Assembly (NCBI RefSeq): GCF_003428155.1
Contig: NZ_QLIR01000010.1
Coordinates: forward strand, 30,001 to 62,000
Direction of reading: 5' to 3'
DNA length: 32,000 bases
From: Fastidiosibacter lacustris
GTDB lineage: Bacteria; Pseudomonadota; Gammaproteobacteria; Francisellales; Francisellaceae
The notes under the pieces were generated by a model that was not told the DNA's origin, made no database searches, and saw only the letters and a list, made by a program, of their open reading frames with translations. Position 1 is the stretch's first letter, and each line of letters starts with the position of its first letter. Shown in pieces: positions 23,414-30,279 of this stretch. Both the position numbers and the translations under genes were made by a program.

Positions 23414-24199
23414 ATGAAAGAAGACAATGTTATTTTATTAGTTAGTACAAATCAAGATGATATAATAGCGCTAGAAAATTTACTTCAACGTTATTTGTTC
23501 CAAACAATAGCATGCTCATCGGGCGCTAATGCCCTAGAAATCTTGAGCACTCACAAAAATATTAAACTTGTTATATTGGACGTCTTATTACCAGATATGT
23601 ATGGTATCGAAGTTTGCAAAAACATTCGTGAACGCAATCCTAATATGGCTATTATTTTTGTTTCAAAAATAACAGATGCTACAGAAGTTGTTTTATGCTT
23701 TGAAGCAGGAGCTGATGACTATATTGAAACTCCTTATAATCAGCATATACTTATGGCACGCATTAAATCAAAACTCCGTGACCGCAATACACATCATACA
23801 CCTTATGCAATCACTGGTTCTGTCAAAATTGATGAGCTTAACATTAATGATTATATGCAAATTCAATTTGGTAAATGGGCTTACTATCCGCGTAAATCTT
23901 TGGTAACCCATCCAGATCAAGATGAAATTTACTTAACTGATAAAGAAGGTGCTCTGCTTAAGTTATTACTTTCTGATCCAAGCAAAACTTTTATGCGCGA
24001 AGAAATTGCCAAATATTTGAACCTTAACATAAAAGAAAGCATGATACGTGATGTTAATATCCACGTTCATCGTTTACGTAATAAACTGACTCAAGGACAC
24101 AACTCAAGCTCACCGATTAAGGCTGTGCGTTCTCAAGGTTATACACTTGATTCTTATTTAACTTATATCTATGACGGCAAAGAGGTTTCCTGCTTATAA
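23414..24199 (+). CDS. OmpR/PhoB-family response regulator with an atypical receiver domain
   Basis: 261 aa. The receiver has the phospho-acceptor context KLVILDVLLPDMYG and IIFVS. However, GADDYIETPY replaces the canonical ADDY(L/I)xKPF (Thr106 in place of the conserved Lys), and the beta1 loop reads LLVSTNQDD rather than V(D/E)DD. The C-terminal winged helix is LTDKEGALLKLLL...VHRLRNKL...IKAVRSQGYTL. Confidence 0.8.
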   Translation: MKEDNVILLVSTNQDDIIALENLLQRYLFQTIACSSGANALEILSTHKNIKLVILDVLLPDMYGIEVCKNIRERNPNMAIIFVSKITDATEVVLCFEAGADDYIETPYNQHILMARIKSKLRDRNTHHTPYAITGSVKIDELNINDYMQIQFGKWAYYPRKSLVTHPDQDEIYLTDKEGALLKLLLSDPSKTFMREEIAKYLNLNIKESMIRDVNIHVHRLRNKLTQGHNSSSPIKAVRSQGYTLDSYLTYIYDGKEVSCL

Positions 24200-24549: not shown

Positions 24550-26748
24550 TTAAAACCCACTTTCTTTGACCCATAAAATAAGGATTTGTTGCCATAAACT
24601 TGCAGCTAAAGACTTTCTTGCAATATTAATAAAGACTTTACCTCGAATGACGTGGGACAAATTATATTGAGGTGAAGCCGTTGGCTTTAATAATAAAAGG
24701 AAAATGCTTTCCTGAGGAGTCAGTTTTCCTTCATTGTCAGGCTTTACTGCAATGCTACCACCAAAGATTGAAGCGTGATATGTGCTAAGAGGAACTGCTT
24801 TATGAATATAGCTAAGGTTAGCCTTATTTTGATTTTGTGACAGTAATAGACTTGCATGGGAGCTTATGATTTGCGTAATAATCACAGGAGTTTTAGTAAA
24901 ATCGATGTTTTCAGGTACGAAATATCCGCTTTGATTATTGGTGAGTTTATCGTATTTTTTGGTATCGATATAAGCATGAAGTTGAATTTGATCTTTATTG
25001 ACAAGCATCATTAGTGCTTGTTTGGCTTTTAGCCATGCTCCAATTTGTAAATCTTCAGATAATGACTCTACAACCCCATCGAATGGTGCATAAAAGTACA
25101 ATTTTTCCTGTTCTTTTTGTAATTGATTAAGCTCTGTTTGAGTTTGACTGATTTGAGTCATAAGAACTTGTTGTTGTTCAAGCTGAGTTTGAAAATGGAC
25201 GATATTACGTTGTTGCCACTTAAGTTGTATAAGCTTTTGTTTAGTTTGTACAATTTTAAAATTTAACTTATCAGATTCTAGAACTGCTAAAAGCTCACCT
25301 TTCTTGATTGTTTGTCCTTTTTTAACGTATATATTGACGACTTTTGCACCTATCTCAGTGTAGAGGGTTTGTGTTTGATATGACATGGTAGCAGGTAAGG
25401 AAATTTGGCTTTGCCAAGGGGTGAAAAAAATCAATATGAGTAACAATAGGATAGAAGTTAAAATAATAGTATGCTTATTAAGTTTAATTCTGCTTTTAAT
25501 GGTCCACCAAACCTTTAATTCACGATAAATAGGATGTAAGATAAAATAAATGATTTCAATTGCAAAAAGGATAATCCCTAGTGCTTTAAAAAATAGGTGA
25601 TAAACCATTAAAGCAATACCAAAAAATAGAAAAAAACGATAAATCCAATTTAGAATTGCATAAGTGATGAGGATGTGTTGCCTAGAGATATTAAAATATT
25701 CTGGCATCGGTGCATTTAGTCCAAAGAGTATTTCTCTGATTTTCCATCTTGTTAGAGCAAAACTTCTGGTTTGAAGGTTTCGCATACTCAAAATATCAGA
25801 TAGAACATGATAGCCATCAAACCTTAAAAAAGGACTGATATTGATCAAATAGGTTGTCATTAAGCTATATGTTGCAAGAAAGAAACAGATACTTTTAAGT
25901 GCGCCTTCTGGAAATAGAAGCCATGCCCACAAAGCAAAAATAGCTATATAAGTTTCTGTAATAACGCCAGCTAGTGCAATCGTAATACGTTCTTTCGGGT
26001 CGTTGACTTTCCAGCTTTCCCCTGTGTCAGTGTAAAGCATAGGGAACATAACAAGAAAGGCAACTCCCATTACAGGCACGTTAAGAGCAAATTTTTTACA
26101 CATTAAAGCATGACCTAGTTCATGGCAGCTTTTGGCAAAAATTAACGCAATGGCATAAAGTAAAATATATTCAATTGAAAATAAAGCAAAAAAAGTATTG
26201 GTAAACTGATCCCATTCGCGCAAAGTAAAGATAAGTGCAAATATTCCAAGAAATGTCATGATAAAAGCAAACGTTTTACCAAGCATAAAGCGAAAATAAG
26301 GATAGATTCTATCTAAAAACTTATTAGGTTTAACAAGTGGAACTCGAAAGAATAAATAATTTTTAACAAGCCATAAAAACCAGTTACTCTTTTTAAGAGA
26401 TTGAATTTTATTGATACTTTTTAATATGGGGTAGTTTTGCTCAATTAGGCAGTTTTGTGATAAAAACTTAAGCATTTGACTTAAATCTTCTTCAGAAATT
26501 TGTGCTAAGGATTTACTTTTTATATCTTTAATAAACTCAGCAGGTGGGACGCTTTGCCAATAGTGTAAAATTTCATGTTCTTTCCAACCTAAATGAAAAA
26601 AGCGATTATTTAATGTGTCTTGAACAATCCAAGTTGGGCTGTTATTAAAATCCATACCTCCTTTCTCTAAGGTAACTCCTAAGCGAAGGGGTGGAAGTAT
26701 TTCTGGTAGTTCTGTCATATTTTGCATTTGCATAGTGTTACCACCCAA
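24550..26748 (-). CDS. Three-part fusion protein. It has an N-terminal soluble domain, a polytopic M50 (site-2-protease-like) zinc metalloprotease core, and a C-terminal HlyD-type periplasmic adaptor domain.
   Basis: 732 aa. HELGH at 26110-26124 lies in a hydrophobic helix. The second S2P motif NISPFLRFDG is at 25813-25842. There are several hydrophobic helices up to about residue 445. Then comes a lipoyl-like hairpin (GAKVVNIYVKKGQTIKKGELLAVLESD), a Q-rich coiled coil and YAPFDGVV, as in membrane-fusion proteins. The track start is TTG 26748; the ATG at 26733 lies 4 nt after the upstream stop. Confidence 0.8.
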   Translation of the reverse strand: MGGNTMQMQNMTELPEILPPLRLGVTLEKGGMDFNNSPTWIVQDTLNNRFFHLGWKEHEILHYWQSVPPAEFIKDIKSKSLAQISEEDLSQMLKFLSQNCLIEQNYPILKSINKIQSLKKSNWFLWLVKNYLFFRVPLVKPNKFLDRIYPYFRFMLGKTFAFIMTFLGIFALIFTLREWDQFTNTFFALFSIEYILLYAIALIFAKSCHELGHALMCKKFALNVPVMGVAFLVMFPMLYTDTGESWKVNDPKERITIALAGVITETYIAIFALWAWLLFPEGALKSICFFLATYSLMTTYLINISPFLRFDGYHVLSDILSMRNLQTRSFALTRWKIREILFGLNAPMPEYFNISRQHILITYAILNWIYRFFLFFGIALMVYHLFFKALGIILFAIEIIYFILHPIYRELKVWWTIKSRIKLNKHTIILTSILLLLILIFFTPWQSQISLPATMSYQTQTLYTEIGAKVVNIYVKKGQTIKKGELLAVLESDKLNFKIVQTKQKLIQLKWQQRNIVHFQTQLEQQQVLMTQISQTQTELNQLQKEQEKLYFYAPFDGVVESLSEDLQIGAWLKAKQALMMLVNKDQIQLHAYIDTKKYDKLTNNQSGYFVPENIDFTKTPVIITQIISSHASLLLSQNQNKANLSYIHKAVPLSTYHASIFGGSIAVKPDNEGKLTPQESIFLLLLKPTASPQYNLSHVIRGKVFINIARKSLAASLWQQILILWVKESGF

Positions 26749-28078
26749 AGAATTGTCTTAGCGTTGTGATCGGTTTTCTAAATAAGTAATAGAATAAACT
26801 TACATTTTCCCCCATCAACTTGGCGGTTCCTTGACTACCAATTTTAGGAAGTGATTGATTGGAATCAAGGTAAGCAATGACTTGATAAGCAAGCACTTGA
26901 GAAGGTGTAATAGTAGCTTCGAAACTTGAATATTCAATTATGCCATAAACAGGGTTAAGTGGATCAGCATTTAAAAATAGCTTAACTTTATCACCCTTTT
27001 GAAAGTTAATTGCATCAGATACAGGTAACCAAATTTCGATTTCGATTTGATTAGGAATAGCAACTTGCATAACGTTTTCACCCGTGACAACTGGTTTACC
27101 AATCCATTGATTGGGAGTGTCAATAATAGCGATACCATCTATTGTGCTTCTTACATAAGATTCTTCAATCAAATGACGCGTATAATTAACCTCTAATGCT
27201 TTTTCTTGCATTTGAGCTTGTAAAACTTGAATTTCAGCACGTTTTTCTATGTCCTGGTAACTACTTTGAACAGCTGTTTTGTATTTTGCTGTTGCAGTGG
27301 CAAGTTCTTTTTGAGCAAGCTCATTAGCATTGACTAAATCACGCTTATCCATATCAAACAAAATTTCGCCTCTACGCACATATTGCTCAGGCATGACAGC
27401 AATATTTTCAATTACGCCTTCCATTGGTACAGTAATAATTGCAGGATCCTTGGCAATAATAGAAGCAGGTGCTAAAACGCTTTGTGGTACACGAATGAAC
27501 ATAGCACTCAGAATGATAACAATGAACAACCAAACAAGGCGTCTTCGTTTGCTTTTGAAGTAATATTTAATTCTGCCCAACAAGCCATTTGGTTTGCTTA
27601 AGTGTGACCATGCTTGATTGTATGAAAGAGAAATCCAATCGAATTGTTTTAGTTCATTTTCATTTAACATATCTGGGTTTAATAGAATGACCCCACCAAT
27701 AATATCTTTATTAAGGTTGCGAAAGAAATAGATATGAGCATACTTTGCAAGTGGTTCAAGCCATCTTGTTGCAACAGCTTCTGCTACATCATCAATATTT
27801 AGAATCAGTAGATCTTTACTTTGATCATAATGGGTAATAATTTTGCTAATAAATTGATTAGCTGAAATTTGATAAGGACTGGTACCGTTGAGTTGGGTGA
27901 TACCTGAGACACTCAAAATTTTTATGTTTTTATTTTGCCAAGAACTCCACACAATAGCACGTTGATATTCAGCAACAAGTTTGGTTTGGTGCGCGATAAA
28001 AAAAGCAAGTTCATTTAAAGTGTGGATTTCACGCATTTCTTGTTGTAAAGAGAGTAAATTAGCTAATACATCTTTCAT
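26738..28078 (-). CDS. HlyD-type membrane-fusion/adaptor protein with a roughly 180-aa cytoplasmic N-terminal domain
   Basis: 446 aa. A single TM (LVWLFIVIILSAMFI, residues about 181-196) follows a KSKRRR stop-transfer. The periplasmic part has a lipoyl hairpin (MEGVIENIAVMPEQYVRRGEILFDMD), a coiled coil, VRSTIDGIA and beta-barrel-like repeats. Confidence 0.75.
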   Translation of the reverse strand: MKDVLANLLSLQQEMREIHTLNELAFFIAHQTKLVAEYQRAIVWSSWQNKNIKILSVSGITQLNGTSPYQISANQFISKIITHYDQSKDLLILNIDDVAEAVATRWLEPLAKYAHIYFFRNLNKDIIGGVILLNPDMLNENELKQFDWISLSYNQAWSHLSKPNGLLGRIKYYFKSKRRRLVWLFIVIILSAMFIRVPQSVLAPASIIAKDPAIITVPMEGVIENIAVMPEQYVRRGEILFDMDKRDLVNANELAQKELATATAKYKTAVQSSYQDIEKRAEIQVLQAQMQEKALEVNYTRHLIEESYVRSTIDGIAIIDTPNQWIGKPVVTGENVMQVAIPNQIEIEIWLPVSDAINFQKGDKVKLFLNADPLNPVYGIIEYSSFEATITPSQVLAYQVIAYLDSNQSLPKIGSQGTAKLMGENVSLFYYLFRKPITTLRQFFGW

Positions 28079-28080
28079 TT

Positions 28081-28878
28081 TTAACCCTCTTTTCTATCAG
28101 TCACTTTATTTATTTTAAAATGAGCAATTCCACTCATACCTGAGAAAAGCATATCCGTGTTGAGAGTGGATGATTCATCATTTTTAACAAGTTTGCCATA
28201 AACTAAAATTGATTGGCTTGCTGGATCTATTTGACTAACAATTTTAATAACTTGACCAGTAAGTTTTATATTAGGTAGCTCCTCTAACATTAAACTAAAG
28301 TTCGTCCCAATATGAATTTTGCTTAACCATGAAGACGGTATGTACATTTTGACTTCAAGCTCTCGATTATCAACGATTTCAAGCAATGGATCATCTGTTT
28401 TAACCATTTCATTTTCTTGAGCGGATTGATGAACGACTTCACCGTTATAAGGTGCAATAATTTGGCATTGACGTTGCTGGAATAAAATGATATCGAGGTC
28501 GGCTTTAGCAATCTCAGACTGACTTTTTGCTTTTGCCAAATCCATTTTACTGGCTGAGTTTAGACGCATAAGTTCAGTTGTACTTTGTAATAAAGCATCA
28601 GCCGCCTCAAGCTCAGCGCGAGCACGTAGCATTTTGAGGTCAATTTCTTCACAATCAAATTGTAAAAGTACCTCTCCTTTTTTAAAGACATCTCCTGGTC
28701 GAAAATAAATTTTTTGAATAGTCCCTGTCATTGGACTAGAAAGAGAAGCTTTGTTAATTGGGAAAACAGAGGCATATGTGCTTTGTTCGCCGGCATCGGT
28801 AAGTTGTTGAAAAGGGGTTATGCCATAAGAAAAACTAAGCAACATAAACAAGGAGATAAATAAACTGCATGATTTCAT
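28081..28878 (-). CDS. Secreted or anchored HlyD-type periplasmic adaptor protein (short form)
   Basis: 265 aa. N-terminal signal/anchor is MKSCSLFISLFMLLSFSYG. Has a lipoyl hairpin (MTGTIQKIYFRPGDVFKKGEVLLQFD), a coiled coil and IIAPYNGEV. AAGGAAG Shine-Dalgarno lies 8 nt upstream. First gene of the operon. Confidence 0.8.
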   Translation of the reverse strand: MKSCSLFISLFMLLSFSYGITPFQQLTDAGEQSTYASVFPINKASLSSPMTGTIQKIYFRPGDVFKKGEVLLQFDCEEIDLKMLRARAELEAADALLQSTTELMRLNSASKMDLAKAKSQSEIAKADLDIILFQQRQCQIIAPYNGEVVHQSAQENEMVKTDDPLLEIVDNRELEVKMYIPSSWLSKIHIGTNFSLMLEELPNIKLTGQVIKIVSQIDPASQSILVYGKLVKNDESSTLNTDMLFSGMSGIAHFKINKVTDRKEG

Positions 28879-29610: not shown

Positions 29611-30279
29611 ATGATGCGAATTTTAGTTGTAGAAGACGATATTATGTTAGGTGAAGGAATAGTTGAAGGCTTAAAGCAGCATAACTACGCTGTAGATTTG
29701 ATGCAAGATGGGAAAATGGCAGAAATGGCATTAGATACTGAACCGTATGATGCAGTTGTTATGGATATTGGCTTACCTTTTAAAGATGGCATTTCGATTG
29801 TAAAAAGCATACGTGCTAAGGGAAACTCAGTTCCAGTTTTACTATTAACCGCGCGTGATGCAATCGATGATCGTGTGCGTGGATTAGATTCAGGCGCTGA
29901 TGATTATTTAACAAAACCCTTTGATTTATCAGAGCTTTTAGCAAGAATGCGTGCATTGGTACGTCGTTCAGCTGGACGGAGCGATCCTAAAATTAAGTTT
30001 GAAGAGTTAGAGCTTGATCCTGCAGCACAAACTGTAACAGTAAGCGGTGAGTTTGTAAAACTTTCAAGAAGAGAATTTGCGTTACTTGAATGCTTGTTAG
30101 AAAATACAGGAAAGGTGGTTTCTAAAACGAAGTTGCTTGAAAAATTATATGGTTGGGATGAAGAAGTAGATTCTAATACCCTAGAAGTACATATTCATAA
30201 TGTACGTAAGAAAATTCAGAATAAATATATAAAAACGTTACGAGGCGTTGGTTATATTGTACAAAAACCAACAGCATAA
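29611..30279 (+). CDS. Canonical OmpR/PhoB-family response regulator (QseB/PmrA-like)
   Basis: 222 aa. Has ILVVEDD, VVMDIGLP, LLLTAR, ADDYLTKPF and the winged helix LSRREFALLECLL...LEVHIHNVRKK...TLRGVGY. No kinase gene follows. Confidence 0.9.
   Translation: MMRILVVEDDIMLGEGIVEGLKQHNYAVDLMQDGKMAEMALDTEPYDAVVMDIGLPFKDGISIVKSIRAKGNSVPVLLLTARDAIDDRVRGLDSGADDYLTKPFDLSELLARMRALVRRSAGRSDPKIKFEELELDPAAQTVTVSGEFVKLSRREFALLECLLENTGKVVSKTKLLEKLYGWDEEVDSNTLEVHIHNVRKKIQNKYIKTLRGVGYIVQKPTA

Follow-up and report, generated by a model that had tools for sequence, protein, structure and literature searches.

An RRE-like domain on a site-2 protease-adaptor fusion from Fastidiosibacter lacustris and its possible role as a receptor for the leaders of giant LEPR-XLL proteins

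A 32,000-nucleotide stretch of contig NZ_QLIR01000010.1 of Fastidiosibacter lacustris (positions 30,001 to 62,000, referred to here as the window) encodes on its minus strand a fusion protein of three parts in order: an N-terminal domain (N-domain), an M50/site-2-protease (S2P) membrane core, and a last transmembrane (TM) helix that leads into a periplasmic adaptor domain of the HlyD/membrane fusion protein (MFP) type. The N-domain is a divergent member of the PqqD superfamily of recognition elements (RREs) for peptides that ribosomes make and that are modified after translation (RiPPs), on the basis of its fold in AlphaFold2 (AF2) and Foldseek comparisons and of a homology chain through a sister family. 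Related genomes point to a client other than a small antibiotic-type peptide, namely the LEPR signal at the N-terminus of giant surface proteins that are secreted. We put at roughly 0.5 the probability that the domain docks this leader and that the fused protease clips it during TolC-coupled export.

Genome mining uses RREs as a handle, since they count as a hallmark of RiPP biosynthesis. In the large family described here, a domain of RRE type is instead part of a fusion of protease and adaptor, and the partners conserved with that fusion are TolC and giant surface proteins. The parts of the fusion gene, with residues of the open reading frame (ORF) counted from the TTG at 26748, are as follows.

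24550..26733, minus strand: RRE/PqqD-like M50-HlyD fusion gene, 727 aa from the likelier ATG at 26733, a start chosen from homologue lengths and the gene call of a near-identical contig
26683..26697, minus strand: motif LPxLR (LPPLR in the window), directly before strand 1, kept in 83–96% of 113 homologues
26455..26676, minus strand: RRE/PqqD-like domain core, ORF residues 25–98, three strands then three helices, from AF2, Foldseek and hhalign
26326..26433, minus strand: linker of two helices and a near-invariant strand, YLFFRxPLxxP, into the protease core (AF2 strand at model positions 128–134)
25423..26277, minus strand: M50/S2P membrane core (Pfam PF02163), seven TM helices and a re-entrant β-hairpin
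26110–26124, minus strand: HELGH, ORF residues 209–213
25816–25818, minus strand: zinc-ligand Asp of NxxPxxRFDG (NISPFLRFDG ends at ORF residue 312)
24553..25413, minus strand: periplasmic adaptor domain (HlyD/MFP) that forms the C-terminal part of this polypeptide (Pfam HlyD_D23, HlyD_3, Biotin_lipoyl)

Fold and ancestry of the N-terminal domain

The first-pass annotation of this DNA, made by eye, had called the N-terminus of the fusion a PqqD/RRE-type leader-binding domain, and the predicted structure bears out this call. An AF2 domain model built from a 73-sequence alignment (model numbering is the ORF residue minus 5) has a predicted local distance difference test (pLDDT) score of 90 and the order β-β-β-α-α-α, with strands at model positions 20–27, 33–39 and 44–48 and helices at 50–57, 64–74 and 81–93 (pLDDT 95–97). 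These elements recur when the whole protein is modelled (pLDDT 88.9). The domain thus has the RRE fold, a three-stranded antiparallel sheet and three helices in about 80–100 residues. When the model is compared by Foldseek with 350,542 PDB chains, ranks 1–9 are all RREs. Some are stand-alone lasso-peptide B1 proteins, TbiB1 (5v1v, 5v1u) and TfuB1 (6jx3); the others are RRE domains that belong to two radical-SAM enzymes, CteB and SuiB. The TbiB1 chains 5v1v and 5v1u match with E = 8e-3 and probability 1.0, with a TM-score of 0.62–0.66 when normalised on the stand-alone RRE targets. The Foldseek probability is 0.90–1.00 for eight of these nine matches and below 0.2 from rank 10.

Homology to a recognised PqqD/RRE domain is reached through an intermediate family. 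A tblastn search of plasmids led to more distant homologues of the same length that are annotated 'PqqD family'. In these sister PqqD-M50-HlyD proteins (e.g. WP_165198722 and WP_326913007, 714–717 aa, from Rhizobium and Pseudohalocynthiibacter plasmids), Pfam PqqD is found at residues 37–101, scoring 28.9 and 27.3 bits against a gathering cut-off of 23.4, and is followed by M50 and HlyD. BLASTP aligns residues 35–708 of the window protein colinearly with residues 62–719 of a Sinorhizobium homologue (E = 1.6e-34). At the level of the domain itself, hhalign matches the N-domain profile to the sister N-domain with P = 9e-7 (probability 91%, 101 columns), and the sister N-domain to PqqD with P = 3e-5.

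A further link comes from NF041824 (daptide_HExxH), the family of daptide RRE-S2P fusions, which is the best NCBIfam match of the window protein (E = 7.6e-39, colinear over residues 36–400). The score of 133.9 bits lies below the 300-bit cut-off, placing the window protein outside the family as defined. The alignment starts at residue 36 in the window protein, and at profile position 1 in the sister protein. As proof of homology for the N-domain this match was accepted in part: residues 1–135 alone are unmatched, and the match becomes significant only once the query takes in the linker strand, with E = 0.012 for residues 1–160 and 1.5e-5 for the family consensus. The N-domain is placed in the PqqD/RRE superfamily because of its fold matches, the homology chain through the sister family and the alignment of both families to NF041824.

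The PqqD pattern that the first-pass annotation had read from the residues does not stand as worded. As a direct sequence match it was rejected on Pfam, NCBIfam and hhalign tests, and the fold and the intermediate family carry the assignment instead. With the N-domain alone, Pfam and NCBIfam return no match, and PF05402 does not recognise the window protein. A search of PDB sequences with the N-domain profile came back empty, and phmmer with the whole fusion protein, or with the N-terminal part of its operon neighbour (the mid protein, below), gave nothing useful.

Judged by its conservation, the N-terminal segment is a real domain under selection. More than 2,000 homologues were found with the full-length fusion protein as query; a word-indexed search with the N-domain alone gave no matches. 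Among 113 full-length homologues W64 is invariant and D44 near-invariant, while L18, L21, R22, W40, F95, L96 and L101 are conserved in about 90% or more, and P19, P38, N48, F50, F51, G54, W55 and N99 in 70–90%. The conserved positions include strand 3 and helix 3 (F50, F51, G54, W55, F95, L96, N99 and L101). A domain-profile HMMER search of 1.84 billion proteins returned 1,525 cluster representatives at E<=1e-3, and the best 150 of these matches are proteins of about 700 aa from the same family or shorter proteins, presumably fragments. The family thus comprises more than 2,000 proteins at 90% identity, or 1,525 representatives at 50%.

The LPxLR motif ahead of strand 1 has a counterpart in the sister family, where RPRLR/LKLKLR aligns at the same place. 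AF2 gives it an isolated β-bridge at model residue 16 (ORF residue 21).

The start of the gene affects the residue numbers. The ORF list begins the same frame at TTG 26748 (24550–26748, minus strand), so that 11 nt are shared with the upstream gene; a start at ATG 26733 (M6) leaves a 4-nt gap instead and is the likelier one. Because the homologues (727 aa) and the gene of the near-identical contig start at ATG 26733, the residue numbers of the first-pass annotation are probably 5 too high. It had placed the domain at residues 15–104, counted from the TTG; translation of 26437–26706 (minus strand) gives exactly PEILPPLRLGVTLEKGG...SQNCLIEQ.

The sister family has an operon of its own, which appears uncharacterised. 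It encodes a GAF-HlyD protein, the PqqD-M50-HlyD protein and a SecA-like ATPase (SecA_DEAD, PP_bind, P-loop), and was read at two loci, 3911–9955 of L086 (Pseudohalocynthiibacter plasmid) and 1292–5413 of L085 (Rhizobium plasmid). In L086 only, a DUF3467 gene lies ahead of the operon and three small membrane-protein genes follow it. Separately, a Nitrospirillum locus (L002, 14066–18151) contains a genuine pyrroloquinoline quinone-type PqqD/radical-SAM (PqqE-like) cluster about 7 kb from its M50-HlyD operon. This cluster was the source of the PqqD query, and its proximity looks coincidental.

Protease core, topology and operon

The remainder of the fusion protein has intact hallmarks of both of its families. 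The protease core carries HExxH in a TM helix and a downstream NxxPxxxxDG, as M50/site-2 proteases do, and none of the residues H, E, H and D varies among 73 sequences. The window protein scores 31 bits against PF02163, for which the cut-off is 27.2. Ahead of the core, linker residues Y131, F133, P137 and P141 are invariant in the family alignment. The C-terminal domain matches HlyD_D23 and HlyD_3 above the Pfam cut-offs, which places it in the MFP/HlyD family, and Foldseek with the full-length model matches it to MacA, EmrA and MexA with E down to 3e-13.

The N-domain is predicted to lie in the cytoplasm, on the same side as the entrance to the S2P active site. In the full-length AF2 model, seven TM helices and a re-entrant β-hairpin after HELGH separate the N-domain from the MFP domain. 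The odd number of helices, a C-terminal domain that lies outside as in MacA, EmrA and MexA, and the positive-inside rule together place the N-domain inside: loops 173–186, 274–277 and 381–382 have a Lys plus Arg content of about 0 averaged over 73 sequences, and the alternate loops are rich in Lys and Arg. Hydropathy alone gives eight hydrophobic segments and hence a periplasmic N-terminus. This was rejected, as AF2 makes segment 220–238 a re-entrant β-hairpin, as in other S2Ps. The cytoplasmic location on which the first-pass annotation relied therefore agrees with the predicted topology.

The fusion is the third gene of a minus-strand operon (24550–28878), and the two genes before it also encode MFP adaptors.

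28081..28878, minus strand: first operon gene, short MFP/HlyD adaptor of 265 aa (TIGR01730 RND_mfp, 112.5 bits, above cut-off)
26738..28078, minus strand: second operon gene, the mid protein, 446 aa, with a cytoplasmic N-domain of about 175 aa, one TM helix and an MFP/HlyD domain

The operon thus encodes three MFP modules and a protease, and no ATPase, RND or MFS component. The mid protein matches Pfam and NCBIfam HlyD models at residues 196–425, and both adaptor genes hold the same positions in related loci. This context, with three MFP/HlyD modules, a TolC-like gene in relatives, no PDZ domain detected by Pfam in the fusion protein and no anti-sigma neighbour evident, supports the earlier view that the protein is not a stress-signalling S2P.

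Three side observations concern these neighbours. The 265-aa adaptor has a hydrophobic N-terminus that looks like a signal peptide by eye. The N-domain of the mid protein (27550–28078, minus strand, about 175 aa) is conserved, cytoplasmic and has no Pfam match; it may be a divergent GAF-like sensor, to which a weak hhalign match with the GAF region of the sister GAF-HlyD protein (P = 0.009) points. Finally, the operon lies between two OmpR-type response-regulator genes encoded on the other strand (23414–24199 and 29611–30279, both plus). Distant relatives do not keep this arrangement, so any regulatory link would be putative.

Giant LEPR-XLL proteins as candidate clients

The partners of the operon become apparent in related genomes. 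The comparison covered 84 loci, four from gene-neighbourhood look-ups and 80 taken from species-representative genomes; 83 are related operons and one is the near-identical contig (L001). Many loci are truncated, either at a contig end or where the 10-kb flank stops. The usual gene order in the 83 related loci is giant, TolC-like outer-membrane efflux protein (OEP), short MFP, mid protein and M50-MFP fusion. Of these loci, 53 have an OEP gene and 40 a giant from a single homologous cluster, and further loci have other clusters of giants. An ABC transporter gene is conserved neither in the window nor across the 83 related loci, which sets the system apart from type 1 secretion.

The giants range from 2,000 to more than 5,600 aa and flank the operon in L002, L003, L004 and L007 and in about 40 further loci. 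Their bodies fall into many unrelated clusters, and what they have in common is an N-terminal signal: a basic stretch, then LLALEPRIMFDGAAVATAAEA, then a segment rich in Ala, Val and Thr, with the motif LLALEPRxMFDGAA. Every flanking giant that reaches 900 aa and has a visible N-terminus carries this LEPR motif (28 of 28); of the five remaining large flank ORFs, four are unrelated genes and the fifth is a spurious antisense ORF. It is shown by 31 loci, always N-terminal, with L, E, R and D kept in 30–31 of the 31. Of five giants tested with the NCBIfam model LEPR-XLL (NF012209), four reach the cut-off, and in each of three tested for DUF4347 this domain comes after LEPR-XLL.

The complete system (TolC, MFP, mid protein, M50-MFP and LEPR giant) is also found on E. 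coli IncF plasmids (L087/L089; NZ_CP081687.1, 44829–64580), where the giant is a 4,459-aa Ig-like LEPR protein that starts ...FALESRQLFDGAA. It occurs in 24 of 5,426 complete E. coli genomes, at 21 places on plasmids and 4 on chromosomes.

These neighbourhoods bear on the ligand that the first-pass annotation had proposed, a small ribosomal precursor recruited by the RRE through its leader, so that the three-gene operon would serve to mature and export a RiPP-like product. In keeping with this are the RRE fold, the homology chain to PqqD and the daptide and epipeptide proteases MpaP and EpeP, both RiPP-processing M50 proteases; no giant cargo gene adjoins the operon in the window, and a small unannotated peptide is possible in the source organism. 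The gene content of the related loci opposes it. No small ORF is conserved beside the 83 related operons (533 short ORFs were clustered, and only pairs from near-identical genomes cluster together), no modifying or tailoring enzyme genes are conserved in these loci, and the window has no clear precursor-like short ORF within 2 kb and no daptide genes near the operon. The short precursor gene and tailoring enzymes that make up a RiPP biosynthetic gene cluster are thus lacking, and what is conserved beside the operon instead is a TolC-like protein and a LEPR-XLL giant. Because the conserved partner is a giant LEPR-XLL/DUF4347 protein, the likely ligand is the leader of a huge secreted protein and not a natural-product precursor. 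RiPP-type maturation is accordingly improbable, and this is the part of the earlier interpretation that falls; the domain call, its cytoplasmic placement, an export machine and an S2P outside stress signalling remain.

A mechanism can be proposed, by analogy, on top of the computed fold, PqqD homology chain, intact catalytic motifs, topology argument and gene association with TolC-like and LEPR-XLL/DUF4347 giant proteins; from these we infer which ligand is bound, that it is cleaved and by what route the cargo is exported. The cytoplasmic RRE-like domain would capture the LEPR leader of the cargo by strand addition, as RREs do with RiPP leaders. The semi-hydrophobic Ala/Val/Thr-rich segment that follows would then be presented N-in to the membrane-embedded M50 active site, and the protease would remove the leader in a manner analogous to daptide MpaP. 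Three MFP modules and TolC could form a periplasm-spanning conduit to the outside. Overall this would be an export route for very large proteins that resembles type 1 secretion and dispenses with the ABC transporter. A candidate role of LPxLR as a pseudo-leader that mimics LEPR was dropped because of a spacing mismatch.

Several results weigh against leader recognition by the RRE-like domain. A direct match to PqqD falls short of significance: Pfam PqqD matches 2 of 73 diverse family members, each at E of about 0.03, and hhalign of the N-domain profile against 120 true PqqD sequences gives P = 0.28, though the alignment is colinear from strand 1 to helix 3. The 32-kb window contains no LEPR motif or giant ORF, and an adjacent giant gene and OEP are missing both there and in the closest relatives (L001 and L005). 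The adjacent LEPR-XLL giant that characterises the proposed LEPR-XLL-associated export class is thus found in relatives and not in the window, which holds the three-gene core only; cargo and outer-membrane partner must be encoded elsewhere or missing. In addition, the operon has no ATPase or other obvious energy source that would take a multi-thousand-residue protein across the inner membrane, whereas the sister system has a SecA-like ATPase. Finally, a second motif of the giants, G[KR]xSLxEQL, lies 20–70 residues before the C-terminus in about 26 of about 40 flanking giants (e.g. L032 6308, L050 8597, L058 6342 and L087 7710); it could be a second export or anchoring signal, and could equally be the one that is recognised.

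This last motif is one form of an explanation in which the N-domain binds another ligand, either the C-terminal G[KR]xSLxEQL of the giant or the GAF-like cytoplasmic domain of the neighbouring adaptor, where it would act as an exporter gate or assembly element. Signals in type 1 secretion are usually C-terminal, and the conserved cytoplasmic domain of about 175 aa in the mid protein is encoded alongside the fusion in every operon. RREs, however, characteristically bind N-terminal leaders as an added strand, and the segments that S2P enzymes cut are N-in (type II), in line with a signal at the N-terminus and not at the C-terminus. The LEPR motif is also far stricter than the C-terminal one. Another ligand is on balance unlikely without being far-fetched.

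Divergence of the N-domain beyond detection by the PqqD hidden Markov model would also be expected if it no longer bound peptides at all, and its RRE likeness reflected ancestry only. It would then serve the protease as a structural cap, or be a winged-helix-like module that is vestigial or has a regulatory role, facing DNA or lipid for example. Such a fate sits poorly with strong purifying selection across phyla that extends to strand 3 and helix 3, the leader-binding groove of RREs. The net charge of the N-domain in family sequences is about 0, unlike that of basic DNA binders, and in three related families the domain always precedes the protease core directly; one of the three is an RRE-dependent peptidase with experimental support. 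A loss of peptide binding is therefore very unlikely.

Docking of the LEPR leader by the RRE-like domain, if correct, would extend well beyond the window. The broader picture is of a widespread export route in Gram-negative bacteria, E. coli IncF plasmids included, in which RRE-like leader recognition of LEPR-XLL/DUF4347 giants, S2P clipping and three MFP modules with TolC operate with no ABC transporter, so that the RiPP leader-recognition principle is reused as a secretion-signal receptor. It is put forward tentatively, as a possibility that falls short of even odds. If the domain does read the LEPR-XLL leader, the orphan annotations LEPR-XLL and DUF4347 would both gain a function, and a secretion route with a cleavable N-terminal signal and no ABC motor would be defined. 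It would also caution that RRE-based mining yields non-RiPP systems. The E. coli plasmid copy offers a tractable model for direct testing. The gene trio of the window is best annotated as an RRE-S2P-MFP export core, and not as a 'HlyD efflux adaptor' or stress-signalling S2P.

Comparison with known systems

RRE-S2P fusions and RiPP-processing M50 proteases are known already; what appears to be new is an RRE-like S2P-MFP fusion tied to TolC and LEPR-XLL giants. Among the papers that could be searched, none deals with a LEPR-XLL/DUF4347/M50-HlyD export system or with such a fusion, and NCBIfam has no curated system name for an RRE-S2P-MFP system.

Among RREs, PqqD and its relatives (PF05402; TbiB1/TfuB1; CteB and SuiB) share with the window domain three strands and three helices in the same order, and are its best structural matches. 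Unlike them, the window domain has no significant direct match to the family and sits on a membrane protease, neither free nor on a modifying enzyme, in a context that is not a RiPP cluster. The sister PqqD-M50-HlyD proteins are closer, with an identical three-part architecture and length, homology over nearly the whole protein and a partner adaptor that likewise has a cytoplasmic N-domain. They differ in that their N-domain is recognised by the PqqD model, they are accompanied by a SecA-like motor, and no TolC or LEPR-XLL giant adjoins them in the two loci read.

As a protease, the window protein shares with RseP/SpoIVFB-type S2Ps the HExxH and NxxPxxxxDG motifs and a re-entrant β-hairpin beside the active site. 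In place of their PDZ or CBS domains and anti-sigma context it has RRE-like and MFP domains. As an exporter, the system resembles type 1 secretion and tripartite pumps (HlyBD-TolC, LapBCE and MacAB-TolC) in its MFP adaptors and TolC-family factor beside giant repetitive surface proteins. In contrast to these, no ABC, RND or MFS inner-membrane transporter is present, an S2P with an RRE-like receptor takes that place, and the conserved signal of the cargo is N-terminal.

The comparison with daptide maturation is the most instructive for the proposed mechanism. MpaP carries an RRE fused N-terminally to an intramembrane S2P and removes the daptide leader (Ren et al. 2023, PMC10036551), and EpeP, TglG and TmoG are further RiPP-processing M50 proteases (PMC10885120). 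The window protein differs from MpaP/DapP (NF041824) by an extra TM helix, a periplasmic MFP domain of about 290 aa and its Gram-negative hosts. Its surroundings differ as well: in place of daptide tailoring enzymes and short ELExMEAP precursors there are two further MFP genes and, in relatives, a TolC-like gene and giant LEPR-XLL neighbours. Common to both is an N-terminal RRE directly on an M50/site-2 core, and the proposed logic would be the same, the RRE holding the leader while the protease removes it.

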